Assembly: GCA_051942245.1 (NCBI GenBank)
Contig: JAVECL010000031.1
Location: forward strand, 1 to 64,000
DNA from: Trypethelium eluteriae
Lineage: Eukaryota
Length of the DNA: 64,000 bases
Reading direction: 5' to 3'
Part shown: positions 23,850 through 64,000 of the stretch, piece after piece
Layout of the letters: every line of letters begins with the position of its first letter
Numbering within the stretch: the first letter of the stretch is position 1
The notes under the pieces: model-generated
The model's input: only the letters and a program-made list of their open reading frames with translations
Told to the model about the DNA's origin: nothing
Databases searched by the model: none
Program-made: the position numbers and the translations under genes

Positions 23850-24038
23850 GATGAACTAGGGAATAAAGCCAGAGCACCTAGAATTACCAGCAGTTAACAA
23901 GAGAAGAAAATTTGAGCCAACGTGCTCCACAATTTTGGAAGAGGGTAGCTTACTAGACGGAGCTCAGCTACAGGAAATAGGTAATTTCCAGAGGGGTATC
24001 TTCGGCAAAAGCCTCACTCTTGGTTCTGCTCCTTTTGT

Positions 24039-24049
24039 TCGGTGATCGG
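24039..24049 (+). promoter_or_regulatory. Putative cluster-1 TF site TCGGTGATCGG
   Basis: In the OMT-FMO/PKS divergent promoter, ~190 bp from the OMT-FMO ATG. Confidence 0.65.
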
Positions 24050-24763
24050 ACCTATTTCCCGGATGCTGTGTTAGAGTAGCTCAGGTAGATCGGTGTGCAT
24101 TCTCCGAGAGAGCTGGTGGGTACAGGTCGCACTAGGTTTGGTTCGGCATTCATCTGAGCGGCAAGACAGACGAGGCTAATCGTCGGAGTATGGCAGTCCA
24201 TATCTGAGACAGGATAACGGAGCAAGTAGAGTACCGCGGTCCCGTGAAGATGCACAGAGATGCGGTAGTCCACACGGTTGACAGGAGAATACTCATCTTT
24301 CCATGACGGCCATCCCCGATCGCTGATCTTCCCGGAGCGTCGCAAAGTCGCTTGCCGCTGATGATAGCAGAGAGTCCATGCAAACACTAGGCTACCATAC
24401 TCCCAATCAAGGAGGAAGGTAGAGTGACTTCTCGCCATGTGATGATCGTTTTCGGAGTCGTTCAATTCTGACCTAGTCGAGATGCATTCACGGTACTCAA
24501 AGTCCGGCAAGGTCCGTTAAAGTGCAAACAAGGAATCTTGTAGGAACTTTATAGTCTGGTGTGCCCGTGGGTAAAGTTGCTAGTACGTGCATTGAGCCAC
24601 TTGGTATCGAGATAGCCACGCAAGAGGTGTTGGTTCCCGGATCTCTGACAAGAGGTCTCAGAGTATGGACATCGTCTTCGCTGAGTTATCGATCCGGTAA
24701 ATTACGAGACTCTTCATTCCCATAAAGTCGTCTCTGCAGTCGCTTCGAAGCATACCCTTCACA

Positions 24764-27700
24764 ATGGCGGCCTCGATACGAGTCTATGTTTTTGGCGACC
24801 AGACATACGACATCGGTGATCCATTGTCCAAATTGCTCCACACGTATGACAATCCACTCCTGGCAGATTTCTTTGAGAGAAGTTGTCAGACATTGAAGAA
24901 AGAGGTCGCCAGACTTGAACGGAGCAAACAGCTGGATTGTCCTCGGTTTTCGAAGCTGACCAATTTGATTCCATTGTGGCGGGCAGGCACATTAAACCCA
25001 GCTTTAAGCCAAGCATTGACTTGCATCTGTCACTTGGGTGCTTTTTTGCAGTAAGTAAGCTCCACTCAGTTACGGGCTAAGATTTAGTAGGTGCTAAACG
25101 TCATTTTGATCAGTGAACATGGATATGCTGGCAGGACATTTCCAACGCCACAAGATGCCTGTCTGACTGGACGCTGCACAGGCTCACTGTCTGCTGTGGC
25201 TGTCAGTTGTTCATCTAGCCCATCAGATCTGCTCTCGCTGGGAGTGCAAACAGTGGCAGTGGCATTTCGAGTTGGAGCGTGTGCTTGGGATGTCGGCAGC
25301 CGTATCTACTCCAAGCAAGATTCAGCGGGCCTTTATCAGTCATGGACAGCGGCAATAATAGGTGCAAGTGAAGACGAGCTTACACGCTCAATCGAGGACT
25401 TTGCTCGCGAAAAGGTGCGTGCTATTTCCTCATCTTCCATCGGAATGAATTTAGCATGATCGGTCTCGAGGATATTAGACTGCTTCTGGCTTAGTGTTAT
25501 CACGTTATCATGCTCACGCTTGCTGACTGAGTCACGTGAACAGGCGTTGACCAAGATCGCGTCTCCTTACATCAGTGCTCGCATCGCGTCAACCCAGAAC
25601 AGCGTCTCTGCTCCACCAGACGTACTCGACCTTTTCCTTTCAGAGCTATCCCACGCCCGTCGTACCATCGTTCGCATCAATATCACAGCTCCCTACCACG
25701 CCAAGCATCTCTACAGCGACGAGGATGTTGATGCACTCCTGTTTGACCTGGCCGACGGTCAGATTCGCGCTCGGCCCGCGACCAGTGCGATTCCTATCGT
25801 ATCTAGCACGACAGGGCAGACGATCTCACCAGTCTCTTTTCTCGACGCACTGAAACTTGCCACGCAGGATTGTCTGCAGAATGCTATTAGATGGGATCTC
25901 ATGGCTGGCAGGGTGACCCGTCACATCCAGTCGTTGGGGGAGAGTGGTAGTTTTGCCATCCATCCGATCGCAGCCACCTCTGATGGCCTTGGACCTTCGA
26001 TCCACAAATTGCTCGGCAATACCATCCGAGAACGTACCTCCCTATTGGCAGAGCCACAGCTCCTAGGTCCCCACGAGTTGTGCAATTCTCCTACAGCCAA
26101 GTCCAAGATCGCTATTGTTGGCATGTCCGGTCGTTTCCCACATGCCCAAAGTATGGACGCCCTATGGGACATTCTGGTACGTGGAGTGGACACACATGAG
26201 CTTGTGCCTCCATCTCGATGGAATGCCAATACTCATGTTGGCGAGGTTACAACAACCTCCGCGACCAAGAATGTCAGTGGGACCGGATTTGGATGCTGGC
26301 TACAGGATGCTGCGGACTTTGATGCTCGATTCTTTAACATGTCACCACGAGAAGCGCCTCAAGTGGATCCTGCTCAACGCATCGCCCTTTTGACCGCGGC
26401 GGAAGCCCTTGAGCACGCTGGCATTGTGCCAGGTCGCACTCAGTCCACACAGAAAGACCGTGTAGGCGTCTACTTTGGTTCGACGAGCAATGATTGGATG
26501 GAAACCAACTCAGCCCAGGACATTGATACCTACTTTATCCCTGGCGGCAATCGTGCCTTTATACCGGGAAGAATTAATTATCATTTTAAGTTTTCTGGTC
26601 CAAGTTATACTATTGACACAGCTTGCAGCTCTAGCCTTGCTGCGATTCATTTGGCTTGCAATGCTCTGTGGAGGGGCGAAGTTGATACCGCTATTGTCGG
26701 CGGTACGAATGTACTGACGAATCCTGACATGACTGCAGGTCTTGATCGCGGCCATTTCCTATCAAGGACTGGTAACTGCAAAACGTTTGACGATCTGGCT
26801 GATGGTTATTGTCGAGGCGAGGCTGTTGCTACTGCGATCCTGAAACGATTCGAGGACGCCGTTGTGGATAAGGACCCCATTCAAGCGTGTATCCTGGCTA
26901 TTGCGACGAACCATTCTGCCGAGGCAGACTCTATCACGCGTCCTCATGTCGGTGCACAGCAAGCTTTGTTTGAAGGAGTACTCGCCGAAGCCGGCGTACA
27001 CGCAAATAGCATCAGCTATTGTGAGATGCATGGGACTGGGACTCAGGCAGGAGATGCCGGCGAGACACTGTCTGTGCTGGAAACACTTGCTCCTATTAGT
27101 CCTCAGTCAGCGGTCAGGAATAACCATCAACCCCTCCACATTGGTGCAGCAAAATCAAATGTTGGGCACGGTGAAGCTGCTGCAGGCGTGACAAGTCTAG
27201 CAAAAGTGCTGTTGATGTTAAAACATTCGACGATTCCTCCGCATTGTGGAATAAAGACTAAAATAAATCACAAACTCCCAGACCTCCCATCCAGGAACAC
27301 TTTCATTGCAGAACAACCTGTCCAGTGGCCCCGACCGAAGGGCTCTGCTCGGCAGGTGTTGTTAAACAATTTTTCGGCTGCTGGCGGAAATACAGCTCTC
27401 GTCCTCGAAGATGCACCACAAGTCCCAAGATCGGATGAGGCCGACCCTCGGGCACATCATGTTGTTGCAGCGTCAGCCAAGACACCAGCATCACTGGAGA
27501 ACAACCTCAAGAAGCTGATTACATGGATCGATGGACAGGATGACTCTACTAACTCAGTTCTTTCCAGATTATCTTACACGACCACTGCTCGTCGCATGCA
27601 TCATCCACATAGGGTCATGGCGGTCGGATCTGATCTGACATCCGTCAAAAAGTCACTCCAAGCATCGTTGGAGGGGAAAGACGGCAGTTCTCGTCCAATA

Positions 27701-30700
27701 GGCACACCTGGCTTCGTCTTCGCGTTTACCGGCCAGGGAGCTCATTTTGCTGGCATGGGAAGTGATCTCTACTCCAAGCTTGCCGACTTTCGGGCGGACA
27801 TCCAACGTTATGATCAAATTTGTTTACGTCTAGAACTGCCATCCATTCGATCCCTTTTCGAGAGCGCAAACGATGCACACAGCAGAGCGACTCCTACAAT
27901 GCTTCAGTTAGCATCAGTATGTTTTCAAATGGCTCTATTTCGCATGTGGCTATCTTTTGGTGTAGCTCCAAAAGCAGTCGTCGGTCACAGCCTCGGGGAA
28001 TTTGCAGCCTTATACGCAGCTGGCGTTCTGTCACAAGCCGATGTAATCAGTCTAGTTGGACGTAGAGCTCAGCTACTGGAGTCCCATTGCGAAGAGGGGA
28101 GCCATGCCATGCTCGCAATCCGGTCAAGTGCTACAGGTCTGGCTAGTTTGCTCGGGCCTCCTGGAGATAGCTACGAAGTATCTTGCTTTAACGGCCGGGA
28201 GAGCACGGTTCTGGGTGGGACAAGGGATCAGATGAACAAAGTCCGCCCATCTCTCACCAAGCGAGGCCTGTCGCACACTTTCCTCGAAGTGCCGTACGCC
28301 TATCACACATCTCAAGTTGATCCAGTCCTCACCTCTCTCGACTCCCTGGCTCGAGGCATAAGATTTGCGGAACCTGTCATCCCCGTAATTTCTCCGGCCT
28401 GCGGAAAGGTCATCCACCAGAGCCGAGACTTTGGATCGGACTTCGTTGCACGACATTGCAGAGCAAGTGTAAACATGTTAGAAGCTTTGAAGCTTGCAAA
28501 GGAGGAGGGCCTACTCGAGGAAAAGATGATTGGCGTTGAGATTGGGTCGGCTCCGGTTGTTGTCAAGATGATCAAAGAAGTTGCCGGATCATCTTTCCAA
28601 ACTTTTGCCTCTATTCAGAAAGGAGAGGATAGCTGGAAGCTATTAAGCGATGCGCTTTCGAAATTCTATATCAAAGGAGTCGAAGTCGACTGGACCGCAT
28701 ACCACAAGGACTTTGAGTCTTGTCAGCAATGTCTGGACCTCCCCTCATATAGTTGGGACTTGAAAGAGTATTGGATCCAATATGTGCACGATTGGTCCCT
28801 CCGTAAAGGAGATCCGCCACTTCGCATTGGGCCCACTAAGCTTGAGAGTTCTTCCATCCATACAATCATTCAGGACAAGTTGGCCGACAAAGGTGGAGAA
28901 CTCATTGTGGAAGCCGATCTCAGTCGGCCCGACCTTCACCCTATGGTCCAAGGACATAAGGTCTATGGTGTACCTCTGTGCACTCCAGTACGTTCTCCCT
29001 TTTCGTTTTTCTTATTTTCTCTTCGAACCCTCACCCATTTGAGACAAATTCGTTCGCACCACCTGTCAGTCAGCTCATGTACTCCACAGTCTGTGTATGC
29101 GGATATCGCTTTAACGATTGGAGAATATGCCAAGGAGATACTGGAACCCACCAACTGTTCATTTGGCGTGGAAGTCGCCGATATGACCATTCAAAGCGCC
29201 CTGGTCGCCAATTCCGACGGAAAGCCGCAACTTTTGCGTACTGTTGCTCGTTTAGACTCTAAGGACAGGAGTGTTTCTTGCACTTTCTCAAGCGTCAATG
29301 TGAGTCTGCAAGCACACTTAAGCGTAGCGTATCGCTAATGGGGTGATCTTAGAAAAATGGCAAAATCACAGAACAGCATGCCCACTGTCTGCTTCGCCTA
29401 TTTGATGTCAATGTTGCTCGGCAAGCTCAGGAAGTCACTGCTGCTCAAATCAAGTCTCGTATCAGCTCACTTAAGAGCCAGGTTGGCAATTCTGGACTGA
29501 CCTTCAGATTCAGCAAGGCAATGATTTACAAAATGGTTGGACAGCTCGCCGATTTTGACCCAAATTATCGCGGCCTTGTGGAGATTACTTTGGACAACGA
29601 TGCACTTGAAGCGACCGGAAGCGTTAACTTTGCCAACGTTTTGAAAGAGGGAAGCTTTCATACGAATCCAGCTTACATTGACGCACTTTCTCAACTCGGC
29701 GGGTTTGTGATGAACGGCAATGAAGGAGTCGACCTCGACAAAGAATTGTTTGTCAATCATGGCTGGAGATCGCTTCAGCTGTTTGAAAGCATTGACCCTT
29801 CCAAGATGTACTCCACCCACGTCAAAATGACCGAGGGAGAGGACAAGCTCTGGAGCGGCGATATAACCATATTTGACGAAGATGCAGTCGTTGGCACCTT
29901 TGGTGGTGTCGCTGTAAGCACCTTTCCCCTCCTCTCTTGTCCAAACAACAGTTCGAGCTGATTTTTTGGGGTAGCTTCAAGGAGTACCGAAGCGACTGAT
30001 GCAATATATCGTGAATGCTGCTAACAAGCGAATCTCTGCTCCCACATCAAGCAAACCAAGCACGGCCACCAGTGGCCAGGATTGCGCACAGACTGTGATC
30101 AAAAAGACTACAACGCATAAATCTACAATCGCACAGAGGTCTGTAGAAACACCTGCAGTGACTATCGCCTTACAGATCATATCTCAGGAAAGCGGAATTG
30201 CGATGAACGAGCTGACTGATGAGTCCCGTTTTGATGACATTGGGGTAGATTCGCTGCTATCTCTGATGGTCAGCAGCAGGATCAGAGATGAACTTGGAAT
30301 TGACTTAGAATCTTCTATCTTCCTCGAATTCAACACAATCGGCGGTTTCAAGACATACTTGAAGGGACTGAATGGTCAGGCTGAGGAGTCTACTACTATC
30401 ACGGAAACGATGGAGGAAGAGATTGTTCCTATCCGCAGTGACACTTTAGACATCGATACCCTGGGAATGGAGGCCAATTGGAAGAGCGCGCTCACCATCA
30501 TAGCCGAGGAAAGCCAAATCGACGTTGCAGATCTCACCAATGATGTATCGTTTGCGGATATCGGCGTGGATTCGCTTTTGTCGCTCGTCATCTGCAGTCG
30601 TATGCGGGATGAACTTGATCTCGAAATTTCCGATAGATCACTCTTTTTGGAATTTCCCAACGTTGGAGGATTGAAGAATTACATAACAGGCGAATCTCAG

Positions 30701-31779
30701 GCCTCCGAGACTGGAAAGGAGACTTCTGGATCGGAACCAAGCATGACCCCCCCTTCGGGTGGCTCGTCTCCTTCGAGCATTAAGGACTTCGCAAATACAC
30801 CGGATACCGAAATTTTGGATACATTTACCGATAATTCTGTGCTTCACAGTCATCAAGTGTTGCCCCCTGTTAAACCGGCCTGGTCAATTACTTTACAAGG
30901 CAGCTCGAAACGAGCCACCAAACGGCTCTTTCTTTTCCCTGATGGCTGCGGTGCTGCTACTTCATATGTAAAACTTCCAAGGATAGCGAGCTCCACTGCA
31001 ATTATTGGATTCAACTCCCCTTTCATGAGGTAAGTCATCGACGAGCTAGCCATTAGTGATTTGATATTGACCATGTTTTCCCTTCAAGGAACCCACATGA
31101 AATGGACAGCCGGCGACTTCCTGAAATTGTGCTATCCTACATTGAAGGTGTTCGCAAGCATCAGCCGAGCGGACCTTATCATCTGGGCGGCTGGTCTGCC
31201 GGCGGCATTTTAGCTTATGCTGTAGCGCAGGAACTCATGGCTTCCGGGGAAGAAATTGCAACGCTGACTTTGATCGATTCGCCCGCGCCGACGGACGGTC
31301 TTGACAGATTACCTCGACGCTTCTTCGATCACTGCTCGAAGGTTGGCATTTTTGGTCTGGAAATGGATGTAAATGCTGGCCAGAATGGATTGCCACCAGA
31401 GCCTTCCAGGATGCCAGAATGGCTGATGCCCCACTTTGAAGCAACAATTGAGCTGTTGCATGATTATCACGCTCCACCAATGCCGGTCGATGGTAGCAGT
31501 CCAGGTAGAGTTACCATTATCTGGGCGGGTGCATGCGCTTTTGACGGCAAGAAGTATGCGTATCTTCCGCCTGCAACGGCTGAGGACGAAGATACTGAGG
31601 GTATGAAATTTCTCACGGAAAGGAGGACGGATCTGGGACCTGGTAAATGGGCGCAGCTGTTCCCTGACCGTGATGTTAGCGTGTTCGTCGTAGATGATGA
31701 GCATCATTTCAGTATGATGAGAGCTCAAGGCGGAGAAAGGTTGGGGGAGTTGATTCGAGAATCCATGGGGCCCACTTAA
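24764..31779 (+). CDS. elcA: Non-reducing PKS SAT-KS-AT-PT-ACP-ACP-TE, CTB1/ElcA-like (probable nor-toralactone synthase)
   Basis: Multi-exon. [51 protein letters not shown], two ACPs IGVDSLL, TE GGWSAGG..HHFSMM. Flanked by the full perylenequinone tailoring set. Confidence 0.93.
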
Positions 31780-42284: not shown

Positions 42285-45200
42285 ATGGCTCCCATTACTG
42301 GAGCCGATAGTCTCCCGAGGGAAAGCCAGATACTTCTCTTCGGTGACCTCAGTTTAATCCAGTTCGAGGAACCCTTGCGTCGCTTGTTGCATGTCAAAAC
42401 CAATGCTTTGCTTACTTCTTTCTTTGACCGTGTTAACTATTCTCTCCGGAGGCTAATTGAAATTCTCCCTATCAAACAACAAAATCTTTTCCCTCATTTC
42501 ACCACACTTATCGATCTGCTCTCCAGATTAGGCGAGACTCCGGGCACAGCAGTCCTGAGGTTTTGCCTGCTGAGCGTTCATGAAGTGGCCCAATTCATCG
42601 AGTAAGTTACAGCCAGTGGACTCTGTGCCCAGATCCTGTTATCTATTCTCACCCGTCCACGCTGTGTTTGCTGATCGTGAATGGCAGATACTATGGGGAT
42701 GGATCCAGATCATATCCATCGCCATCCAACACCTATGTGATTGGCCCGTGTACTGGTGGCTTCGCTGCTGCAGCTATCAGTTGTTCACAAAACCTCCCCG
42801 ATGTTATACCTAATGGAGTGGAAGCAGTGACTGCAGCATTCAGGACTGCCCTTCGCTCGTATCTGATCGGCGACGGTCTCTCAAGAGCACAGTCTACCCA
42901 GTCAAAGTCCTGGTCAGCTGCTCTGAGTGCTCAGGGTGACCTCGATATCGAGGGAATGTTAAACGAATATGCAAAGACCAAGGTCAGAAACTTATATGGT
43001 ACACATTTCTTGCAAGAAACTTACCGTACTCGACCACAGACGCCCCTTCGTGACTCGACACTCTGGCTAAGTGCCACCACTCCCGGTAAAGCAACGACCT
43101 TGAGCGGACGGCCTTCTGTCCTGCAAGATTTTGTATCGACAAATTCGAACAGGCTCAAATCTCGCTTCCTGGATATTCATTCGCCATATCATGCAGCTCG
43201 ACTTTTCGACGCTGATGATGTAGAGCAAATTGTGGGCAAAATCCATCATCAGTCCAGGACCCGGCAGATACCTAGGATTCCTCTACTTTCATCATCGACT
43301 GGAGAGGTCGTCGAGGCTCCCGATTTCCCCAGCTTGCTTCGAATTGTGATAGAGGAAGCACTGCGAGAACCCATCCGGTGGGAGGCAGTATTATCGTCAT
43401 GCCGCACGCTCTTAGCAGAAACGCGGACAAAAAGTTGCACTATTTTGCCTTTTTCGAGCAACGCTGCCTCGATGGTCTCTACGACACTGGCCAAAGATAC
43501 AAATATCCACATTGACGTTGAAGATTTGTCGTCTCAGGCTACCCACAAAATTCCCTCAGCGCCCACGGGCCGCTTCGAGCATTCTAGGATCGCTATTGTC
43601 GGCTACTCTGGCCGTTTCCCATCCGCGGAATCGAATGAAAAATTCTGGGAGCTGCTAAAGGCCGGTCGTGATGTGCATCGCGAGATCCCGGCCGATAGGT
43701 TCGACTGGAAAGCACACTGGGATCCCACTGGGAAGAAGAAAAATACGAGCCGTGTCAAGTATGGATGCTTCATAGACGAGCCAGGTCTCTTCGATCCACG
43801 CTTCTTCAACATGTCTCCACGCGAGGCTGAGAATACCGACCCGGCTCAGCGGTTGGCCATCACAACGACCTACGAGGCCATGGAAATGGCAGGTATGGTA
43901 CGCAATAGAACTCCAAGCACCCAACAAGATCGTATCGGAGTCTTTTTCGGTACTACCAGTGATGACTGGAGAGAGGTAAATAGCGGACAAGACGTTGGAA
44001 CATATTTCATCCCAGGTGGGAACCGGGCTTTTGTGCCAGGGCGTATCAGGTGAGTAGCCAGATCATAATTCTTTATCTTCTCTTTGAACATTTGACGAGA
44101 GTGAGAAAGAGACTGACTTGATTATCAGTTACTTTTTCCGTTTCTCTGGACCCAGTCTTAGTATCGATACAGCCTGCTCGTCAAGTTTCGCCGCCATTCA
44201 GGCTGCATGCAGTTACCTTTGGAAGGGTGACTGTGATACCGCTGTTGCTGGTGGCACAAATGTCCTCACCAATCCGGACAACTTCGCTGGTTTGGATCGG
44301 GCTCACTTTTTGTCAACAACCGGTGAGTCAATTTTGTTTCAAGCTCTCTACAGGGCTATTGAAGGGCTATAATTTCTAATTAGATCATCCATTCAGGAAA
44401 TTGCAACGCCTTCGACGACGGAGCTAATGGCTACTGTCGTTCGGACGCCGTTGGCTCGGTCATTCTCAAGCGTCTTGAAGATGCTGAGGCAGACAACGAC
44501 CCTATCTTCGGAGTCATTGTTGGCACGAATACAAACCATTGTGGACAAACGGACAGTATTACGCGTCCGCACGAGGGTGATCAATCTAGCGTATTCAAGC
44601 GCATCATTCGACATAGCGATATTGACCCACTTGACGTGAGCTATATTGAGATGCATGGCACCGGAACGCAGGCTGGCGATGCTACCGAGATGAATTCAGT
44701 CATGTCGGTCTTCGTGCCCGAGTACAAGAGAACGACCGAGCGACCAGCTCGACCCTTGTATATCGGGTCGGCCAAGGCAAACATCGGGCATGCGGAGTCA
44801 GCGTCGGGTGTATCATCGCTGATCAAAGTGCTCATGATGATGAAGCACAGCGAGATTCCTCCTCACTGTGGTATCAAGACCAAGATCAACCACAACTACC
44901 CGCTGGACCTTGCCCAGCGTGGCATCAACATCGCATTTGAGACGACCCCGTGGCAACGCAAGGACAAGAAGCGGGCTGCTTTCCTCAACAACTTCAGCGC
45001 TGCTGGCGGAAATACGGCAATACTAGTTGAAGATGCCCCCGAGCGGCGCTCGAAGCAAATTGGAGCTTCGACCACTGAGAAAGACTCTCGCTCCGTTCAC
45101 ATTGTCGCCGTGACCGCCAAGACGTCTAAGTCCTTGACTGGCAACATCAACTCTCTGATTGCTTACCTCGAGAAAAATCCTTCCACCTCGCTTGGGGCTC

Positions 45201-48200
45201 TATCTTACACAACTACCGCTCGCCGCATGCATCATAACTACCGAGTTTTCGTCTCAGGATCCGATGCCACTTCTATCTCCTCGGCTCTCAAGTCCCGGGC
45301 CTTGGAAAGCGAAACAACACCTATCAAGCCTATCTCAAACGCCCCGAAGAAGTCACCCCGCGTCGTATTTGTATTTACTGGCCAGGGAACTCTTTACGCG
45401 GAGCTGGGAAGATTGCTCTTTGATACTAATGCAGCTTTCCGCAGCAGGATTCACCAACTCAACCGTCTCGCGCAAAGCCAGGGCTTTCCAGGCTTCCTCG
45501 GTCTGATTGACGGATCTGTCGCCAACCTTCAGGTTGTTGGAGCGGTTGTGTCACAGCTTGTGCACGTATGCATCCAGATCGCACTCTCTGAACTCTGGAA
45601 GAGTTGGGGTGTCGAGCCTGCTGCCGTAATTGGTCATAGCTTGGGCGAGTATGCAGCCCTCTATGCCGCAGGCGTGCTCAGCGTTGCTGATACCATTTAC
45701 CTTGTGGGCACGAGGGCGGTCCTTCTGGAAAAGCGATGCACGGCTGGTACCCATGCCATGCTTGCCATCAAAGGCTCGCAGGAGGCTGTGCTTGAGATGA
45801 TCCACAAGAGTTCTGAAGGCGAGACCGACAGGAAGAAGAATTGTGAGTTGGCTTGTGCAAATCAGCCTACAGGTCACGTCGTTGCGGGGCCCGTTGATAA
45901 GATATCTAAGGTCGCTCGTGCGGCTGCAGATGTCAACATTGAGACGGTGCGGCTCGATGTTCCTTTTGCATTCCACTCGGCTCAGGTAGAGCCCATCCTC
46001 TCCGAGTTCGAACAGGCTGCGGCGCAAGGAGTGGTTTACCATCCCCCAACCGTGCCTGTTCTCTCACCACTACTGGCAAAACTTGTGCCCGTAGGTGACA
46101 GCACTACACTCAATGCTTCATACCTTACTGCTGCATGTCGAAACATGGTAGACTTCAAAGGTGCTGTTTCTGCCGCTGTCTTGGCAGATGATGCCCTAGC
46201 CGCGGCTGATCGTACCATCTGGCTCGAGATTGGACCCCACCCTGCCTGCAGTGGTATGGTCAAGGGTACACTCGGCTCGCACTCAAAGACGGTTCCAACG
46301 CTGCGCAAGCAAGTCGATGCATACAAAACGTTGGCAACAGCCCTTGAGATGCTCTATCTTTCTGGTATTGAACTTGATTGGAATGAGTATCACCGCGACT
46401 TCCCCACTGCACAAGAGGTACTTGACCTTCCGATGTATGCATGGGATTCGAACACATACTGGATTCAATATCGCAACGACTTCTGTCTAACGAAAGGAGA
46501 CGACATGATGCCACTTGCTCTTGAGGCGCCCGTTCCGGAGCGCAAGCCGGTGGGCAAGTATATTTCGCCATGTGCGCAACAGGTCGTTGAAGAGTTCCAC
46601 GGTGCGGAGGAATCCTCGCTCATTGTCGAATCTGATATCTTCGATGAGAAATTGCTGCCAGTCCTTGCCGGCCATTTGGTGAACGGGGCCCGCTTGTGTC
46701 CATCTGTAAGTCTCATTCTGAAATGCCTCCTCGATATCCGTGGATATTTACTGACGCTTCTGCGACCACACTTAGTCCATGTACGCCGATCTTGTCTTGA
46801 CTATGGCAAAATATATGGTGCTCGAAAGCCCTAACAAGCTCCCAATCGCTACCACTGGCCTTGAGGTATTTAATGTCAGGATCGACAACCCCCTCATTGC
46901 TCGGACTACCGAAACTACTCACCGATTCCGTGCCTCGGCCACGGTAGAATGGCATACCAATGTCATTTCCTTTTCCATCTTCAGCGTCGATGGCTCCGGA
47001 AAACGTACCGCCTCCCACGCGAAACTTGATGTACGTATTACTCCTGAACAACATTGGTCCGACGAGTGGAAGCGCAACACGCATCTCATCACATCACGCA
47101 TCGAGGCGCTGGCTGAAAGCAAGGAGAGCCACACCATCAAACGTGGAATGGCGTACAAGATATTTGGCGCCCTGGTTGAGTATGGCAGTGAGTATCAAGG
47201 CATGGCAGAGGTTGTCATGGACAGCAAGCGTCTAGAAGCGTATTCGACGGTCCAATTCCAGGTTGGACAGCAGGGATTCCTGGTTAATCCAAAGTGGATT
47301 GATAGCGTTGGAGGCGTGGCTGGCTTCATCATGAACGCCAACGATGCTGTCGACAGCCGGACGCAGGTGTTTATTAATCACGGATGGGAGAGAATGCGGA
47401 TTGCAGAACCACTTGAAGAAGGCAAAACCTATCGGGCGTACAATCGCATGCAGTTGGTTGAGAAGACGACCTACGCTGGGGATACATACATTCTAGAGGG
47501 CGACCGGATCGTGGCTATCTTCGAGGGCGTGACGGTATGTTTTCTTGAATTTCCCTTGTCTGTGCTTGTTATATGAACGCTTTCTTCCTCGCTGGCGATG
47601 ACATGTGGATGTTTTACTGACCTATCCCTAGTTCCAAGGCGTCCCTCGTCGTGCACTTGATCACCTTCTCCCGGGCAAGACAAGTCCAGCGAGTGCAAGA
47701 CCGGTCCCACCGAGTCAACCAGCTCCACAGGTTCAGGCAAAGGCAGCAGCACCGAAACCCAAAAGCCACGTATCTGCACCCGCGCTGCAGCCAAAAACCA
47801 AAACTGCAGAAACATCATCCGGTGTTCTTGGCCGAATTCTGGCTCTCATTGGCGAAGAGATCGGCGTTACACAATCCGAACTTAAGCCAGAGGTTGATTT
47901 CATGGAACTGGGAATCGACTCGCTGCTCTCACTGACGATCACGGGAAAGATACGCGAAGAGCTCGGGTTGGAATTTCCTACTTCACTCTTCATTGATCAC
48001 CCAACCGTTGGAGATCTACGAGCTTTGATCGGTGGTGGAGGCGATGGCTTGGTCGTATCGGGCTCCAGCTCCAGTAGCGATGACGAGAGTGAGGAAACAC
48101 AACTTACTAGTGCTTCAGGTGAACAGGATCCACAAGTCCAGGATGATTCTTCCAGTCGCACTCGTGCTGCCCTCATCTTGAGGCAAATCATTTCCGAGGA

Positions 48201-49383
48201 AACTCGCGTTGGCATTGATGAGCTGACAGCATCGACAAGTCTTGTCGACATTGGGGTGGACTCTCTACTGAGCTTGACCATTACCGGAAAATTGCAGGAG
48301 CTCTTGAACGTGGACATTCCTTCGAGCACTTTCATGGAGTGCGACTCTCTGCAGGAAATCGAGGATGCTGTATGCAAGGAACTTGGGCTCCCAAAAGTGA
48401 CCGCGAAGAAGCCTGAGCCAGCCAAGAGCCATCCTGCGACATCGAACACACTAGCAAACTGTAACGGGCCAAACCCACAGATCCGATCATCGCAGCAAAG
48501 CAGTCAAAGTCAGGATACCGCCGATTCTTCCCTCCCGCAAGCAAGCTCGATCTTGCTCTCAGGCTCGCCACAAACTGCCCGACTGATCGTCTTCCTCTTC
48601 CCTGACGGCTCTGGTTCAGCGTCTTCGTACGCTGCGCTAGCACCCGCTATTGATACCAGCAGCATCGCCGTCTACGGATTAAACTGCCCATGGCGCAAGA
48701 GCGGAGCCGAGATGACTCGCCTGGGCCTCACAATGTCCACGATGGTCTCGAGATATGTGGCTGAGGTAAGACGACTTGTACAACAAACCACAAAAGCACG
48801 AGGGAAAGCCATTCCCGTTGCCGTAGGTGGATGGTCAGCCGGGGGCATTCTGGCTGTCGAAGCCATACGACAATTGCAACAGCACCAAGACGGCGACCAA
48901 ATGATAAAAGTTAGCCAGTTACTCCTTTTCGATTCTCCCAACCCAATCGGCCTACAGAATCCGCCTCAACGAATGTACGATTTCTTCGACACATTAGGCA
49001 TCTTTGGCGGTGGTGGCGGCGATAAGGCTAAATCTAAGACGCCCGAGTGGCTTCGTCAGCATTTTGATGCGTTCCTTCGCATCTTGGACGATTACGAGCC
49101 AACTCCTCTTCCCGATGCACCGGCTTCACTAATTGTGTACGCGAAAGATGGAGTGTGCAAGGACCCTAACGGGCCGAAGATGGAGACGCGGCCAGACGAT
49201 CCTCGGGAGATGCTGTGGCTGTTGAACAACAGGACAGACTTCTCGGCGGAAGGCTGGGCGAGTGTCTTGGGTCGGGGGAAGCTGAATGTGAAGGTATTGG
49301 AGGAGGTTAATCATTTTACTCTTATGGACCCGGGGCCAAAGATGAAAGAGGCGGGTCATATTGTCACGAAATTTCTTTCTTAG
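42285..49383 (+). CDS. Second non-reducing PKS SAT-KS-AT-PT-ACP-ACP-TE, probably PhnA-like
   Basis: Multi-exon. [45 protein letters not shown], ACPs LGIDSLL and IGVDSLL, TE GGWSAGG..NHFTLM. The PhnA-like assignment is inferred from neighbouring genes. Confidence 0.92.
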
Positions 49384-55799: not shown

Positions 55800-55990
55800 A
55801 AAATGGTTTCAATATTGTAGATGACAGGATCGTTAAAAAGTTACGGTTCGTCTCCATGAGAATGTACCTTCTCTGTGAATCAGGTAGAGTTGAAGAAGAG
55901 CTTTCCTCACCTGGTTTTACGAAAGAATACCCCAATTTCTGATTTTTCTCTCTCTCGACCTTATACAACTCCCACAGTCAGGTAGCAAAG

Positions 55991-57385
55991 ATGGCGGTTG
56001 CGGCCCAGTCCCCAATCTTCCAGTCCATGGAGTCAGAGACTTCAAAGTCTAGGGCCGTGGACATGGCCAGTACGTCGCAAGGTCTGCCGTACTGGTGGAG
56101 TACCAGTGGACGCGATCTTGCCAACATGCTTCACGAGGCCAATTACCCCGAGGAAGTTCAACGTCACTTCTTGAGCTACTATCGAGATATCATTTGCCCC
56201 CGACTGGGAGGCCAGCCTGGCGAGGATTCTGTCAAGAGCGGGGTGGGCTGGGATGGGAACCCATTGGAATATAGCTTTGAGCTGAAAGGCACGACCAAGA
56301 CCCAGGCTGTTCGTTTCGTCGTTGATCTCACCCAGCTCCGCCCAGCGGACAGGAGCAGTCCTCTGAGCATGGACACCACGCAAAAAGTGGTGGACATGAT
56401 GGCAGACAAGGCACCGGGATTTGATGAGAACTGGAGCAAGTCGCTGCAGCGATGGTTCGTCTATGACCACCTATCTGAGGACGAACAAAAGGCCTTGATC
56501 GCCAAGGCAGGACAACAGACTTCTGTCATCCTGGGTTTCGACATATTCAAACGCGTTGCTGGCCCCGATGGGCTGCCGGTCATGGCCAAAGTCTACTACC
56601 CTCCCTGCTACACTGCCGCAGCCAAAGGAATTACCCGTTGGCAAGCCGTCCGTCAAGGTATCCAGCAACTTCCAGGCGTTAGCTCCTATCCCAACATCCT
56701 GAAGTCAACCGAGATCATCAACGACTACCTGTCTGACAAACCCAGAGAATGGCAGATGGGCACCCGGTACTTGGCCACTGACCTCGTTGGTCCGGAAAAG
56801 GCGCGCATGAAGGTGTACATGCGCTGCTTTGGACGGACCTTCGATGACATCTGGGACTACTACACCCTTGGCGGCCGAATCACCGGTGTCGAGGAAGATA
56901 AGGAGAAGTTCCGGGACATGATGAATTTCGTAAGCGGCACAAACAACTATGATGCAGAGATCTCCAAGCAGGACCCGCTGGACGAGACCCGATACCGATC
57001 GGCAACTGGCAAATTGACGGCCATTTACTTCTCAATCTCGGCCGACAACCCCATTCCGGCCCCCAAACTCTGCATCTACCCTGCCAACTTCGCACCCAAT
57101 GACGAAGTCATTGCCAAGGGACTGGATAAGTGGTTGACCAAATATGGGTGGCACCATGAAGGGGCCTCCATGGAGGAACAAGTGAAGAGAGTCTTGTACG
57201 TGCTTTCCCGCTAATCTGATTCGAGTGACGCTTCTAATCAAGGAAATAGTGACCATCGCCCACTGGGAAAGAAGACAGGTATTTTCACTTTCATCGGCAT
57301 CGGAAGGAAGGAGGATCCAACCAGCAAGGATCTGAGTATCCAAGTCTACGTGACCCCTGAGCTTTATGAGACCCCGCGGTACTAG
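55991..57385 (+). CDS. phnF: DMATS/ABBA-family aromatic prenyltransferase, PhnF-like
   Basis: Exons 55991-57195 and 57250-57385. YWWSTSGRDLANMLHEANY, WDGNPLEYSFE, AKVYY, LATDL..ARMKVY, YYTLGGR, PKLCIY..ND, IQVYVTPE. Confidence 0.85.
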
Positions 57386-57819: not shown

Positions 57820-57871
57820 ACGTGTTTCACAAGTGAGCTGATCACCCGGGCGAGCTGATCAACCCCACCAC
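57820..57871 (+). repeat. Left terminal inverted repeat
   Basis: ACGTGTTTCACAAGTGAGCTGATCACCCGGGCGAGCTGATCAACCCCACCAC, with an internal direct repeat GAGCTGATCA x2. Confidence 0.95.
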
Positions 57872-57910
57872 GCGTCGCGCGTACGAACCTTTAATTCTCA
57901 ATTGACAACC

Positions 57911-59554
57911 ATGCAAGCTTCTAATAAGTCTAATCTTGAGGGAAGACTTTTATTAGCTATTCAAGCCTATAAATCCGGTGAAATTAAAAGTCTTCGTAAA
58001 GCTGCTGCTTTATACAACGTCCCATACGCAAGCCTTAATACACGCTACCACGGTACTCCTTCACGACGCGATACTCGACCAGCAACACGTAAACTTACTT
58101 TTACTGAAGAAGAAGTTCTTATTCAGCGTATTCTCGACCTTGATATTCAAGGATTTCCACCTCGAATATCTGTCGTACGAGAAATTGCAAATCTTATCCT
58201 CGCAAGCCGCGAAACAACCCCACTACAAACTGTCGGCAAAAATTGGCCTACAAACTTCGTGAACAGCTGCGATCAACTTCGTACGACATATAATCGAAAG
58301 TATGACTATCAACGATCACAATGCGAAGATCCAGTCGTTATCCAGGGTTGGTTCAATCTCGTACGAAATATGATTCGGAAATATGGAATACTTGATGATG
58401 ACATCTACAACTTTGATGAGACTGGCTTTCAAATGGGGGTTATTGGAACTGCAAAAGTTGTTACAGGGACTGAGAAAAGAGGTCGTACGAGGACTGTACA
58501 GCCAGGGAATCGAGAATGGGTGACTGTCATTCATGGAATTAATGCAAAAGGCTGGGCGCTTCCGGCGCTAATCATCCTAAAAGCAAAGCTTCACCAAGCA
58601 ACCTGGTATACTAATAACGACCTACCACGCGACTGGCGCATTGCTGTAAGTGAAAATGGCTGGACTGACGATCAGATTGGCTTTGAATGGGTTCAGCACT
58701 TCCATAAGCATACTGAGCGTCGTACGAAAGGTCAATGGCGCCTCCTTATCCTTGACGGCCATGGAAGCCACCACAGTGCTAGATTTGAGAATTTTTGCAA
58801 GCAGAACAAGATCCTTACGCTCTGTATGCCTGCACACTCATCTCATATCTTACAGCCACTTGATGTGGGCTGTTTTAGTCCACTAAAGCGAGCGTACGGT
58901 ACGCAGGTTGAAGGACAAATGCGACTTGGCATCAACCACATCACAAAAGAGGACTTTCTATCAATCTACTATATCGCGCACACTCAAGCGATTACAGAAA
59001 AGAATATCCTTAGTAGCTTCTCAGCAACTGGACTTGTTCCTTTCAATCCAGATTATATTCTTTCAACCCTAGATCCTGTCGTACGAACCCCAAGCCCGGT
59101 ATCTACACATGAGTCAATCTGGGAGTCAAAAACACCTCGTACGATGCCTGAAATCAAGCGCCAAGCAAAGCATATCCAAGAGCAACGCCGACTTCGCAAA
59201 AATAACTCAAAATCTCCATCGGATAGTGCCTTTAATCAGTTATTAAAAGGTTTTGAAGTGGCTGTACATGAGAGAGCAATTTTGATGGCAGAGGTCAAGG
59301 AACTCCGAGCTGCAAACAAGCGGCAGACACGCCAGCGAAACCAACATCGTACGACTATTGCAGATGGAGGTACCTTGAGCATCAGTGAGGGTCAGAACAG
59401 GGTTACTGAAGGCCAATTGGAGGAGCAAATTCAGAATGAAGTACGAATTGTTGAAGCGCGTGCTGGTCCAAGTCAGCCAAAAACACGTGCTGCACCTCGC
59501 TGCAGCTTGTGTAAATCACTTGAGCATAACGCAAAGACTTGTACAAGACGTTAG
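57911..59554 (+). CDS. Fot1/pogo DDD transposase (HTH-psq, CENP-B-like HTH, DDE_1, C-terminal CCHC)
   Basis: ATG at 57911. SLRKAAALYNVP, YNFDETGF, LLILDGHGSH, LQPLDVGCF, RCSLCKSLEHNAKTC. No internal stops. Confidence 0.95.
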   Translation: MQASNKSNLEGRLLLAIQAYKSGEIKSLRKAAALYNVPYASLNTRYHGTPSRRDTRPATRKLTFTEEEVLIQRILDLDIQGFPPRISVVREIANLILASRETTPLQTVGKNWPTNFVNSCDQLRTTYNRKYDYQRSQCEDPVVIQGWFNLVRNMIRKYGILDDDIYNFDETGFQMGVIGTAKVVTGTEKRGRTRTVQPGNREWVTVIHGINAKGWALPALIILKAKLHQATWYTNNDLPRDWRIAVSENGWTDDQIGFEWVQHFHKHTERRTKGQWRLLILDGHGSHHSARFENFCKQNKILTLCMPAHSSHILQPLDVGCFSPLKRAYGTQVEGQMRLGINHITKEDFLSIYYIAHTQAITEKNILSSFSATGLVPFNPDYILSTLDPVVRTPSPVSTHESIWESKTPRTMPEIKRQAKHIQEQRRLRKNNSKSPSDSAFNQLLKGFEVAVHERAILMAEVKELRAANKRQTRQRNQHRTTIADGGTLSISEGQNRVTEGQLEEQIQNEVRIVEARAGPSQPKTRAAPRCSLCKSLEHNAKTCTRR

Positions 59555-59679: not shown

Positions 59680-60559
59680 TAGTACGGGCCTGATTACATC
59701 ATCCACAGTCCGCCCCTTCCTGCCATAACACTTCGTTCACTGGTTGATCCGCCGGAAATCCTCGCAAAGGCGATCCGTCTTCAAGACATTAAATACCTGT
59801 GCAGAATACTTAGGCAGGTGGTCCGTCACAGTACATCGAAAGCGAGTATGCTCCTGTACTTGAACCCCAAGAGACTGAGTATTCTGACAAAGAGATCGCG
59901 AAGCTGCTAATTTTAGAAGCAAGAGATGCTCCTTGGATCTGCTCCACCTCGTACAAATTTGAATCGGCGACCTCAAAACCCGTTCATGACTACTCTTTTC
60001 GAGGAATGGATCAGAAATATGTGACTTCCGCGCGGTGGGCCTAAGGAGTTCTGCTGCTTCTGGCCCCCAAACTTCACTGCTGGCTAGCCAATCAGTGCAT
60101 AGAGAAGCCGCCTTGGGGGCTGATCTTGGGAACCGTCATGGACTAATCCTGACCGTTCTGTGCTGAAGCTTAATCCTTTTGAGGGTGCAATACGCGAATT
60201 GCCTCTACAATGGATCCTTCAAAGGCTCAGCTTGGTGTTTAAGATCCTCGCTTAACCCATTTGCCTTGTTTCTTTCTTTCAACTGCAAAACAGGCAACGA
60301 GGCTTAGTTGGTCAAATGTCGAAAGCCTATAAAATGAAAAGCCGAAGCCTCAACGATCTGAAAACCTGTACAGGTGATGTTCGCTAGGTCAAAGATTCTG
60401 CACGAAGCCTTGCGTGCACTGGTGAAGTTTTTTGAGCCATAACCATGCAGGCAAGCTGACTGGCCATACTACCTGATAGCTCCTTAACCTGGCGTTCTCT
60501 CTCACTCTTCAGATCTTGGATTTGCCCAAATACTGCTTTCCGTGCTCAAACAGGCTAAA

Positions 60560-63500
60560 ATGCCAAAGGACAAATCAGATGCAAAGTCGGACGGAAGGTG
60601 GCAGGATGGCACATGGAAGCCAGTCGTGGATCAATTTGGGATCTGGTCCAATTCGAGATTGGCATCACACGCAATAAAGGCTTTGTCCGCGGAAAAGAAT
60701 CCTATCACAGGTTCGGAATCTCAATCTCAGCTTGCGAAAACTGCTACGGCGATGTTGAGGAATGGCATGGCCATACCTCCGCTTCCACCGAGCGACTTCG
60801 ACACAGCGTTAGACAACTTGACGAGGTTACACGATTTTGAGAGATGGCCGTCTGAATTCACGAAGCTGCGGGACACCTTCGAGGTCTGGAAGAAGCAAGG
60901 TATTGATGTTCAAGACCAGATTAGCTCGCTGCACGCTCTCATTTTCAGCGAAACTGGACACGCTGCACTGGAATTTGCAAAGCATTATCATGCTCTGCTT
61001 GTTTCTGCCGGTGTGCTTACTTCCAACGAGTATCTGATTCGCGCTGATGGTACCAACGATCGAGCTTTGAATCAGATGCAAGGTCGCGGCATGTACATAC
61101 TTCGCAACGCGGAGAAGATGTCCCACGAAGGCATGGTGGAACTGAGCTCGAGAATGCGGGATAATATGGTCATGGTCGCCGGGTATGCTGATACCGAGAA
61201 GAAGTTACCCAAGGATCTCAAAGAACGCTTCTTCTTGAAATTCGATTTTCTTCAAGAGCTATCCAAGAATTCAGTTTCGATCATCATGGCCAGGCTTGAG
61301 TCTTGGTCAAAGGAGCACTTCAAGGAAACTATGACTCTGGAGGGGGGGTTCAAGGGTCCCTACGCCCGGACGTTTGCAGCCAGGATTGCCGAGAACGAAA
61401 AGAAAGTTAAGGGCACGATCGAGGAAAGGCTGAAGATTGAACTCAAAGACGTAACAGACAGACAGGTCCTTCGAATTGGAATAGCAGATGCTCGTGGAGC
61501 TGAAGCGGACCCTTTCAAGATCTCGAAAGAAGATCTACTGGGGGAGGAACCGGACATCGGCACGTATGAGACGGACGCTTGGCGCGAATTGCAGGGTATG
61601 ATCGGCCTGGAAGACGTAAAAGCATCCATGCGATCATTCATCAACGGTACATTGCTGGATTTTCATAGAGAGATTGACGGCTACAAACCACTTCGCCCGG
61701 GTTTGTGCAAGCTTTTCCTCGGGCCACCAGGAACGGGTAAGCTACTGTGTCTCATTCCTGGTATACGCCATTGTAAGCTATGATCGTGACTTACCTGACA
61801 ATGCAGGCAAAACGACCGTTGGCAAACTCTTCGGGAAAGTTCTTTGTGGACTGGGCATGCTATCGTCTGAGGACTTTGTCTTCAAGAATGCAACAGATTT
61901 TATTGGTAGCTTCATTGGCCACTCTGAAAAGCAGACAAAAGATATTATTAGAGGGGCTAAGGGCAAAGTTCTCATGATAGATGAAGCATACATGCTGGAT
62001 CCGCATCGGAACAAGTCTGCAGGAGGTCCTGATCCTTTTCGGCAAGCCGTTATTGATACGATCGTTGGAGAGGTCCAGAATTCTCCCGGAGAAGACCTTT
62101 GTGTAATCATGTGCGGCTATAAAGAGCCAATGGAGCGTATGCTTGAAAAAGCCAATCCGGGCCTAGCTCGCCGCTTTCCCCTGGCTGACGCTTTCATGTT
62201 CCAAGAGTACAGTCTCGAGCAGCTGGCACAGGTGCTTGACCTCAAATTACAAGCGGAGGGCTTGAAGATGACGGACGACGCAAAATCCGTCGCTCTGGAC
62301 ACGCTCAAGCTTGCCAAACAGCAAGCGAATTTTGGCAATGGTGGAGAAGTCATGAACCTTCTCGGTCGCGCGATGGCACGCTACCGGACTCGTTTCGGCG
62401 AGATGACCCCTGAGGAGAGGACAGGAATAGTCTGTTTCCAGCCAGTAGACATCGATCCAAAACAGCAGCACAATCCCGACATAGAGAAAGCCATCGAGGA
62501 ATGGTTCAAGGAGCTGAATGAGGTCACGGATTCCAAGACCCGCTTCCAATCGCTTGCGCGCCGTGCCGCTGCTATTCGAAAGACTGGCCGAGATCCGGCA
62601 TCATCAATGCCATTTCATTTCATGATTAAAGAGACCCAGGGCGCTGATCCAGTGAAGATAGCCAAGAAGATCGCTTGGCTCTACCTTTCGCTCAATTTGC
62701 TTTTTACCAACGATGTTGTGGAAGTATCGGCGCAGGATATGATTGCCAGTCATCTCAGCAGATCTGTAGGAGTCGGAAGCAGTGACTTCTTCGGTGTAGA
62801 GAGAGAGATGGCATCGTTGAGTCCGTCCGAGATCATCGCAGCGTCTCTCGGAAAGGTTCTGCTCATTCACAACGCCCACTATCTCGCCCAGTCCGGGGAT
62901 GATCAGGCCAGCATCTTCGCCAGGAATTTCAGAGCCGAACTTATCGATTCAGCAACCAAGCCTCAATTCGCTTGTAAGGTAGTCATTGTACTTGCAGGGG
63001 ATGAAAGAACGATGGATCGCATGCTCCAAGCAAGTCCTGGGCTTGCGAGCCGGTTTCGAACTCACCTGCGAGTTCAAGGCCTCTCAAGTGAAGCTCATAT
63101 TTCGATGCTCAAGAGCCGCTTAGAAAAGGAAGGCATATCTGTCGCATTGGCAGAAGATGACGAATCGAATATCAAGATCGCGTTCCAAGTGTTGTCCAGG
63201 TCCAAGGAATGGAAAAGCAGCGAGGAAGTACGACTCATTGCTGAGGAACTTGTTGGTGATGCCATAGAAACTAGTGCAGAAACCGATGCACCCTCCCTTG
63301 ACGGATCCGAGATACTCAAATGCCTAAAAAGAAGATTCCCCGGTCAACTACGAAATCCTCCTCCGCGCAAACAGCCACCGGAAGCAACGGCGCCTCTTCC
63401 TAGCCGTATCGAAGACAGTGAACGGCTATTCCGAACACAGACTGTCACTCCAGCGCAAACTTGCGGCAGCATGAAACTAAAGAAATCCATACCTGACAAA

Positions 63501-64000
63501 TTTCAGTACCCTAAGTTGCCGGAAGGCCGCTACATACGCATCCTCAGTCTACTGCCGCCTGAGACCCAGGGTCACAGTGAGGATCCTGATAATCCCAAAA
63601 ACCCTAATGTTACCAAAAGCGTTACCAGCTATGAGAAACGCGACGATGTGATCAAGTGTGGCCTTGAGGAACTCCGACTGGGAAACCTGCCTGATCAGCG
63701 ACGGCCCTTCGATGCGATCTCCTACACTTGGGGAACAGAAGACAAGACAGAAATGATCGAATGCAACGGCAAGGCAATCTGGGTTACACCGAACTGCGCG
63801 GGCGCATTGCGCGCCTTGCGTCAACCAGGACGGCCGCGTAAGCTGTGGATTGACGCGATTTGTATTAACCAGGACTCGGACACGGAGCGAGACTCCCAGG
63901 TCTCCCAAATGGGAGACATATATAGGGCCGCGATGCAGGTTTACATCTACCTTGGTGCAGCCTCTCCTGAAACTAATGCAGCGCTGGTTTCCCTGCAAAA
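60560..64000 (+). CDS. CbbX/SpoVK-type AAA+ ATPase repeat protein fused to a C-terminal HET domain (3' truncated by window)
   Basis: Exon 60560-61736, intron 61737-61806, then an open frame to the window end. Walker A GPPGT-GKT, Walker B VLMIDEAY, ANPGLARRFP. From ~63500, in the same frame: YIRILSLLPP..FDAISYTWG..LWIDAICINQD..ERDSQVSQMGDIYRAAMQVYIYLG. Confidence 0.87.

Follow-up and report, generated by a model that had tools for sequence, protein, structure and literature searches.

A triple SpoVK/CbbX-type AAA+ cassette fused to a HET domain in Trypethelium eluteriae, a candidate non-NLR cell-death switch

Can the HET cell-death domain of filamentous fungi be coupled to a nucleotide switch other than that of the NOD-like receptors (NLRs)? 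The question is raised by the right-hand end of a 64,000-nt stretch of DNA from the lichen fungus Trypethelium eluteriae (contig JAVECL010000031.1, positions 1 to 64,000 of the forward strand; this whole stretch is called the window below), where a first-pass annotation made from the letters alone had proposed that three AAA+ modules run in one frame into a HET domain. Few genes of filamentous fungi are as numerous, or as poorly understood, as those with a HET domain, and passages of two reviews term them ‘mysterious players’ (PMC12881547, PMC10197012). Below, we establish that the AAA+ cassette and HET belong to one gene, place this gene in a small fungal family, and weigh what its product might do.

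The plus strand of 60488–64000 holds two long open frames, 60488–61783 and 61620–63998, the second of which stays open for 793 codons from module 2 of the cassette into HET and runs off the 3′ end of the window. They are joined by a 70-nt intron of the canonical fungal type (GTAAGC...CTGAC...CAG), whose length explains why the second frame is shifted by +1 relative to the first. From the ATG at 60560, which the first-pass annotation had correctly taken as the start, 1123 codons of the gene can be read in the window without a stop or frameshift, and every motif string quoted earlier is present in the translation. The claim that the same frame continues into HET holds for the 793 open codons, with the amendments that HET is cut by the window end and that the gene has one intron.

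The intron cuts the Walker A motif of module 2 (GPPGTG|KT), which is therefore not contiguous in the DNA. Splicing rebuilds GPPGTG|KTT, and this is confirmed by two deposited proteins that contain GPPGTGKTT, one from Viridothelium virens (P0123) and one from Trypethelium subeluteriae (P0003); both genera are Trypetheliaceae (Dothideomycetes). The former, recorded as ‘P-loop containing nucleoside triphosphate hydrolase protein, partial’, has 444 residues, all identical to the window protein, and spans from Met243 of exon 1 to exon-2 residue 293 (window 61286–62687), covering module 2 and ending inside module 3. The frame is open beyond this point, and by covering module 2 alone the public annotation conceals modules 1 and 3 and HET. 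The latter is the orthologue: it has 1700 residues, begins at the same Met, is 86% identical to exon 1 over residues 1–392 and 82% identical to exon 2 over residues 394–1123, and extends 577 residues beyond the end of the window. Furthermore, a public DNA run, possibly made from the same source DNA as the window, has an independently assembled contig of 7057 nt that covers 60500–64000 without a break, reaches ∼2.6 kb beyond the window, and differs from it at four bases, with no indels. These single-base differences lie at 61174, 61970, 63232 and 63402. The gene model is as follows.

60560..61736, plus strand: exon 1, 392 codons and 1 base, running from the N-terminus through module 1 into the beginning of module 2; 86% identity to the orthologue.
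61737..61806, plus strand: intron, 70 nt; the exon break has the same position in two related metagenome loci, L001 and L003.
61807..64000, plus strand: exon 2, open at the window end; the gene continues beyond.

Might two neighbouring genes, one for AAA+ and one for HET, have been misread as one? The deposited annotation does stop inside module 3, and ENA gene callers split relatives, but these splits fall at intron-like breaks and not at the AAA–HET junction. Moreover, nine independently annotated proteins contain both parts, and a single 793-codon frame leads from module 2 through module 3 and the linker into HET; locus L001 likewise has 688 stop-free codons from AAA2 into HET. The 793-codon frame essentially excludes the two-gene reading, to which we give hardly any chance. 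The AAA cassette and HET form one protein-coding gene.

What does this gene encode? From its N-terminus the chain runs through a short leader, a pseudo-AAA+ module (module 1), a live one (module 2), a second pseudo-AAA+ module (module 3), a linker and HET, to which the orthologue adds a HET-6-like tail. Confidence in the structure models is given as predicted local distance difference test (pLDDT) values. The parts lie as follows.

60560..60769, plus strand: N-terminal ∼70 residues, no recognised domain; residues 1–59 disordered, with pLDDT <50.
60806..61549, plus strand: module 1, pseudo-AAA+, exon-1 residues ∼83–330; Walker A and B lost.
61574..62453, plus strand: module 2, intact SpoVK/CbbX/EccA-type AAA+; contains the intron.
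61721..61814, plus strand: Walker A of module 2, GPPGTG|KT, interrupted by the intron.
61968..61991, plus strand: Walker B of module 2, VLMIDEAY.
62526..63353, plus strand: module 3, pseudo-AAA+, exon-2 residues ∼240–515; aligns with the intact AAA3 of relatives.
62631..62654, plus strand: degenerate Walker A of module 3, ETQGADPV; GPPGxGKT in relatives.
62868..62873, plus strand: degenerate Walker B of module 3, HN (IHNA; LLIHNAH); DE (IDEA) in relatives.
63036..63056, plus strand: PGLASRF of module 3, a putative arginine-finger motif, retained.
63216..63227, plus strand: lid of module 3, SSEE; NGRD in relatives.
63354..63707, plus strand: linker of ∼118 residues; pLDDT <50 at residues 517–560 and 595–610.
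63708..63998, plus strand: HET (PF06985), first two thirds, cut by the window end.

In exon 2, Pfam detected AAA (PF00004; residues 20–105), AAA_lid_6 (PF17866; residues 156–198, 27.3 bits against a cut-off of 24.3) and HET (residues 634–722), while the Pfam scan of exon 1 returned no family. The NCBIfam models SpoVK (E 1.2e-46), EccA (1.8e-40) and CbbX (6.1e-36) all recognised module 2, and each of them matched exon 2 in two stretches. None reached its equivalog cut-off (SpoVK TIGR02881, 158.9 against 422.95; EccA TIGR03922, 139 against 466.65; CbbX TIGR02880, 124.2 against 459.25), and by these scores the gene is a superfamily relative and not an orthologue of SpoVK, EccA or CbbX. The closest solved structures by sequence to module 2 were EccA1 (9lur) and CbbX (3zuh/3syl), with E 5e-20, and the solved chains of 286–309 residues fit one module.

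As judged from these motifs, only module 2 keeps what is needed for ATP binding and hydrolysis. Module 1 (exon-1 residues 83–392) is collinear with the AAA1 that NFX1-type helicase proteins carry, with E-values between 1e-16 and 7e-24 in the better rows; their GNPGTGKT is replaced by SETGHAAL and their FIDEAYQ by ILRNAEK. In its AlphaFold model (mean pLDDT 71), a helical lid accompanies five parallel strands, and in Foldseek its top PDB match was CbbX (3zuh_A; E 1.1e-8, template modelling (TM) score 0.51), with the other matches listed all being AAA+ proteins. The model of exon 2 (730 residues, pLDDT 79) contains a second five-strand core with a lid, corresponding to module 3, and a low-confidence linker. 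The tandem-AAA proteins p97, Cdc48, Rix7 and Drg1 align to this model over 517–579 columns, from which it follows that modules 2 and 3 are both AAA folds; the TM-scores are low (0.26–0.37), and the packing of the modules is not readable from them. The earlier description of an intact module 2 between two modules that have lost both Walker motifs and kept the scaffold is thus well founded for this protein, with collinear alignment, the strand-and-lid models and the PGLASRF of module 3 all agreeing. We take the Arg of PGLASRF to act as an arginine finger. The idea that it completes the ATP site of module 2 is kept as speculation only, the Arg being absent in P0004, P0006, P0007, P0124, P0126, P0131 and P0199.

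HET itself scored 85.1 bits against a Pfam cut-off of 22.5 (E 7.9e-24), matching profile positions 1–93 of 146, and keeps 15 of the 16 positions that are invariant or near-invariant in the family alignment, including Glu693 (nt 63885). According to the excerpts cited, HET alone induces cell death and is a remote relative of TIR (PMC4986451, PMC9815663, PMC10197012, PMC12881547). A conserved glutamate is described in a passage of one of these papers (PMC9815663), and we infer that Glu693 is the ‘functionally relevant glutamate’ named there.

For the part of HET beyond the window we turned to the orthologue, which has a complete HET (residues 1027–1177, profile positions 1–146) followed by ∼520 residues. 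Seven stand-alone HET proteins align with its residues 1004–1397 at 24–29% identity, and 14 tail-only gene calls match residues 1159–1699 at 37–47%; some of these calls lie on contigs equal in length to those of AAA-HET fragments and are probably the same genes, split by gene callers. In a language-model atlas the tail adjoins clusters labelled PF26639 Het-6_barrel (score 0.98), a lead that comes with no alignment, and one relative (P0009) carries a precomputed Het-6_barrel label; the Pfam scan gave no match to PF26639, so that this label of the tail is not confirmed by alignment. The protein is likely to consist of the AAA cassette and a whole HET-6-like protein, which is not proven for the tail. 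A predicted two-copy complex of orthologue residues 1015–1400, run without controls or a custom alignment, scored 0.00, a value that speaks neither for nor against self-association of HET.

Is the fusion peculiar to this locus? An exhaustive representative search returned 54,170 relatives of the AAA part (E ≤0.001). Among the 120 long homologues listed, nine carry HET, in all nine C-terminal to the AAA modules, and a custom HET profile found the domain in 17 of the 266 proteins collected. This makes 16 fusion proteins besides the window's own. Named members come from Trypethelium, Viridothelium, Bathelium, Neocucurbitaria, Meristemomyces, Cercophora and Microdochium, a patchy distribution over Dothideomycetes and Sordariomycetes, and include a Viridothelium paralogue from the same species (P0050) at 29% identity. 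A full-text literature search, with subscription journals and supplements outside its scope, found no description of an AAA(SpoVK/CbbX)–HET protein, and ‘HET domain’ combined with ‘SpoVK’ returned 0 papers; the excerpt available from Dyrka et al. 2014 contains a passing reference to one ‘UNK/AAA/TPR’ protein (PMC4986451). The fusion proteins are already present in public databases as hypothetical proteins, and the kind to which they would belong, HET effectors coupled to an NTPase switch, is known.

In trees of AAA2–AAA3 (FastTree, 149 rows; IQ-TREE in quick mode, 52 rows), all 15 HET rows that could be placed fell into one 20-row clade with a support of 99. For these trees the helicase-type rows were thinned to one in four and P0123 and P0268 were dropped, and roots were placed at the midpoint or on a single outgroup. 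The remaining five rows of the clade are short and end ≤54 residues after AAA3; they may be truncated gene calls. The clade is joined first by three AAA-only proteins and then by a clade that includes AAA-TPR-CHAT proteins, with the helicase-linked cassettes outside both. By this topology the fusion is a conserved one of single origin, and the cassette appears to descend from the C-terminus of NFX1-type helicases, a direction that depends on the placement of the root. One pair within the family stands out: P0004 (Neocucurbitaria) and P0005 (Cercophora), from different classes, share 59% identity over 1700 residues. For comparison, members within Dothideomycetes are 39–40% identical and NFX1-type orthologues across the same classes 46–47%. 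This suggests either old paralogy with differential loss or horizontal transfer.

Metagenomes contain the fusion as well. Three of 80 loci matched from AAA2 into HET, and of these L001 is the one with the open frame described above. L002 (103–3952) is interrupted in module 3 by a single in-frame stop and changes frame within HET, where there may be an intron. L003 (4836–9918), a full-length copy, is collinear over 1373 residues with 29 in-frame stops and is, to judge by these, a pseudogene. From the three loci it follows that the fusion is real at the DNA level and that the family includes decayed copies.

We read the motif states across the family from a MAFFT alignment of 25 rows. Module 1 lacks Walker A and B in all 11 HET-family rows that cover it. 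In module 2, IDEAY is kept in 16/16 rows covering it and GPPGTGKT in 11/11, the window's copy being split by the intron. Module 3 varies: it is intact (GK[ST] and DE) in six of 16 rows (P0004, P0005, P0008, P0009, P0010 and P0126), has one motif altered in eight (P0006, P0007, P0050, P0124, P0125, P0127, P0131 and P0199), and has lost both motifs and the NGRD of the lid in two, the window protein and its orthologue. The label ‘dead-live-dead’ given earlier fits these two and is not the general state of the family, in which the six proteins with an intact module 3 are dead-live-live. The family-wide state is dead-live-variable, with the Trypetheliaceae lineage of the window and its orthologue as the end point of module 3 decay.

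Does this decay extend to the gene as a whole, so that it is losing its function in the lineage of the window, perhaps silent or becoming a pseudogene beside a transposon? Module 3 is fully degenerate only in these two proteins, which sit on a long stem (0.49–0.55 changes per column), a DDE_1 transposase open reading frame (ORF) lies ∼1 kb upstream, L002 and L003 carry stops, and the deposited model is partial. On the other hand, the 1123 codons are free of stops and frameshifts, and the same state is present in a second genus at 82–86% identity, with conservation highest in module 2 and HET. Compared with the orthologue, module 2 is 88–92% identical and HET 90%, followed by module 1 at 86%, the N-terminus at 85% and module 3 at 78%; the linker, at 74%, is the least conserved part. 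The values for modules 1 and 3 indicate that the dead modules are still constrained, module 3 less so. In addition, a dead module 1 is kept family-wide, so dead modules can be functional scaffolds. We consider ongoing loss of the gene's function quite unlikely.

The first-pass annotation had related the cassette to the tandem CbbX-like AAA modules at the C-terminus of NFX1-type helicase proteins, and it is indeed homologous, module by module, to the three AAA modules found there. These ZNFX1-like superfamily 1 (SF1) helicase proteins have three collinear CbbX-like modules, as the window gene does; they differ in carrying the helicase N-terminal to the cassette, in lacking HET, and in their motifs, with Walker A and B of module 1 present in 4/4 and modules 2 and 3 intact, whereas modules 1 and 3 of the window gene are dead. 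No SF1 helicase (AAA_11/AAA_12) precedes the cassette in the window: exon 1 has no Pfam family, the start Met is common to the orthologue, and the next ORF upstream is that of the transposase.

This homology bears on a second alternative, put forward in the first-pass annotation, in which the cassette is an integrated decoy or guard that mimics the helicase cassette, so that a parasite factor (from a mycovirus, for example) binding the copy would release HET. The module-by-module match is what such mimicry would produce, and so is a module 1 dead in 11/11 and a module 3 altered in 10/16, as expected if catalysis were dispensable. Dispensable catalysis does not square with the unbroken IDEAY and GPPGTGKT of module 2, however, and the HET clade is an ancient one, separate from that of the helicases, with no sign of a recent copy: identity to helicase cassettes is 31–39% in modules 2–3 and 21–26% over module 1. 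We also know of no role for the helicase cassette itself. The decoy reading is weakened by these results, and we regard it as improbable.

How, then, does the protein compare with fungal NLRs? The prediction of a non-NLR architecture stands, as Pfam finds neither NACHT nor NB-ARC in the window protein or nine relatives. The HET-NACHT-WD40 NLRs of Podospora (HET-E, HET-D, HET-R) resemble it in that one chain carries both HET and a P-loop NTPase module for oligomerisation, and, in the excerpts cited, they too form a patchy, fast-evolving family (PMC9815663, PMC4986451, PMC12881547). They differ in that their NTPase belongs to the signal transduction ATPases with numerous domains (STAND; NACHT or NB-ARC), while here it is a triple SpoVK/CbbX-type AAA+ cassette, and in that HET is N-terminal there and C-terminal here. 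No WD40, ANK or TPR repeats were found by Pfam in the orthologue or the other eight HET relatives; nSTAND3 is listed for two of these nine, below the cut-off. Among defence models, PADLOC offered no family for the window protein and a weak TRIP13 match (E 0.0016) for the orthologue.

The nearest precedent is the fusion of the Tiamat ATPase to HET-6, described in a 2026 preprint. As far as its available passages go, the likeness consists in an N-terminal ATPase and a C-terminal whole HET-6-like protein in filamentous fungi, and both that fusion and AAA-HET can be read as a sensor joined to a death effector. The Tiamat ATPase has a GHKL/MORC-like fold, unrelated to the AAA+ of the window gene, and those passages make no mention of the AAA-HET family. 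Among single-module proteins, CbbX (the red-type Rubisco activase) and EccA1 (the AAA+ protein of ESX-1) share the N-terminal helix, the alpha/beta core and AAA_lid_6 with the window gene, and neither has a death domain. Both have one AAA+ module per chain, and EccA has a TPR N-terminus.

A further parallel is offered by the AAA-TPR-CHAT proteins, found in three of 10 scanned proteins of the clade neighbouring the HET clade and, by precomputed domains, in a fourth (P0038, P0092, P0093 and P0100). Like the HET family, these have an AAA2–AAA3 cassette with a C-terminal effector-type domain, here a CHAT caspase-like protease behind TPR repeats. Three of them (P0038, P0092 and P0100) are missing the alpha/beta core of module 1, have IIDDAH, with DD instead of DE, as Walker B of module 2, and keep module 3 intact; by these motifs the pattern of module decay differs from that in the HET family. 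That the effector is swapped for TPR-CHAT in a neighbouring clade is the pattern expected of an immune scaffold.

The swap also helps to weigh a third alternative, that the HET-6-like half is a complete sensor and effector to which the cassette is attached as a chaperone or remodeller, or that the protein has a housekeeping role. In its favour, the stand-alone HET proteins align with the corresponding part of the orthologue, the tail resembles Het-6_barrel clusters (by the atlas lead only, which alignment did not confirm), and the nearest solved relatives, CbbX and EccA1, are remodelling ATPases. A signalling scaffold accounts better for the exchange of HET for TPR-CHAT, though, and the patchy distribution and pseudogenes speak against housekeeping. 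We think this alternative unlikely.

We therefore favour a reading of the AAA-HET protein as a non-NLR, NLR-like, ATP-gated switch for regulated cell death, which we judge to have an even chance of being correct. The AAA+ cassette would be a nucleotide-gated assembly module, in which modules 1 and 3 serve as non-catalytic scaffold or sensing positions, and either two chains could close a ring of six modules or six chains could give stacked rings. Until triggered, the cassette would keep the HET-6-like half separated or in an auto-inhibited state. The trigger, a danger or non-self cue that the tail or the pseudo-modules perhaps sense, would let ATP-bound module 2 drive assembly, and this would cluster the TIR-like HET domains and kill the cell, possibly via consumption of nicotinamide adenine dinucleotide (NAD+). 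CbbX needs both ATP and its ligand to assemble into a hexamer, and TIR enzymes require self-association. The patchy distribution, the decayed copies and the same-species paralogue are typical of immune gene families and suggest a role of this sort.

Several points weigh against the switch. The orthologue has no sensor repeat by Pfam, and the AlphaFold models were built on shallow alignments (11 sequences for exon 1 and 22 for exon 2). Module 3 is decaying in the lineage of the window and the deposited annotation is only a partial model, so that the gene may have lost its function in the species of the window. AAA+ proteins of the CbbX/EccA/SpoVK type are remodelling or chaperone ATPases and, to our knowledge, not death switches. 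Finally, a 2025 review, in the passage cited, still lists the biochemical activity of HET as not determined (PMC12881547).

If the switch reading is correct, a single live ATP site next to a HET-6-like protein offers a tractable handle on these genes and predicts that HET is activated by nucleotide-driven assembly. Together with AAA-TPR-CHAT and Tiamat-HET-6, AAA-HET points to fungal immune receptors of kinds other than the STAND NLRs. The series of module 3 states, from intact through partly decayed to fully dead, is natural material on the retention of pseudo-ATPases in AAA+ assemblies. Of greater interest, if true, would be that the AAA cassette is a general non-STAND immune scaffold. SpoVK/CbbX cassettes could be a second scaffold of fungal immunity, with interchangeable effectors (HET-6-like or TPR-CHAT) and, flanking a single live site, pseudo-modules for sensing or assembly, and NFX1-type helicases would be the ancestral, nucleic-acid-sensing form. 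This wider proposal is tentative, and we would sooner expect it to fail than to hold.

The surroundings of the gene contain further features. The transposase ORF upstream (57842–59554, plus strand) is a 570-codon frame with DDE_1 (E 1e-34) and HTH_psq, apparently an intact pogo/Tc5-like transposase. A secondary-metabolite region lies beside the AAA-HET gene (21054–31779, 42584–49383 and 55943–57214), with two multi-exon non-reducing polyketide synthase genes (SAT-KS-AT ... ACP-ACP-TE), a prenyltransferase of the dimethylallyltryptophan synthase (DMATS) type and a minus-strand O-methyltransferase/flavin adenine dinucleotide (FAD)-monooxygenase ORF. Further left are an AflR-like regulator (10955–12280), a laccase-like ORF (5601–6824) and a Zn2Cys6 factor (872–2758).

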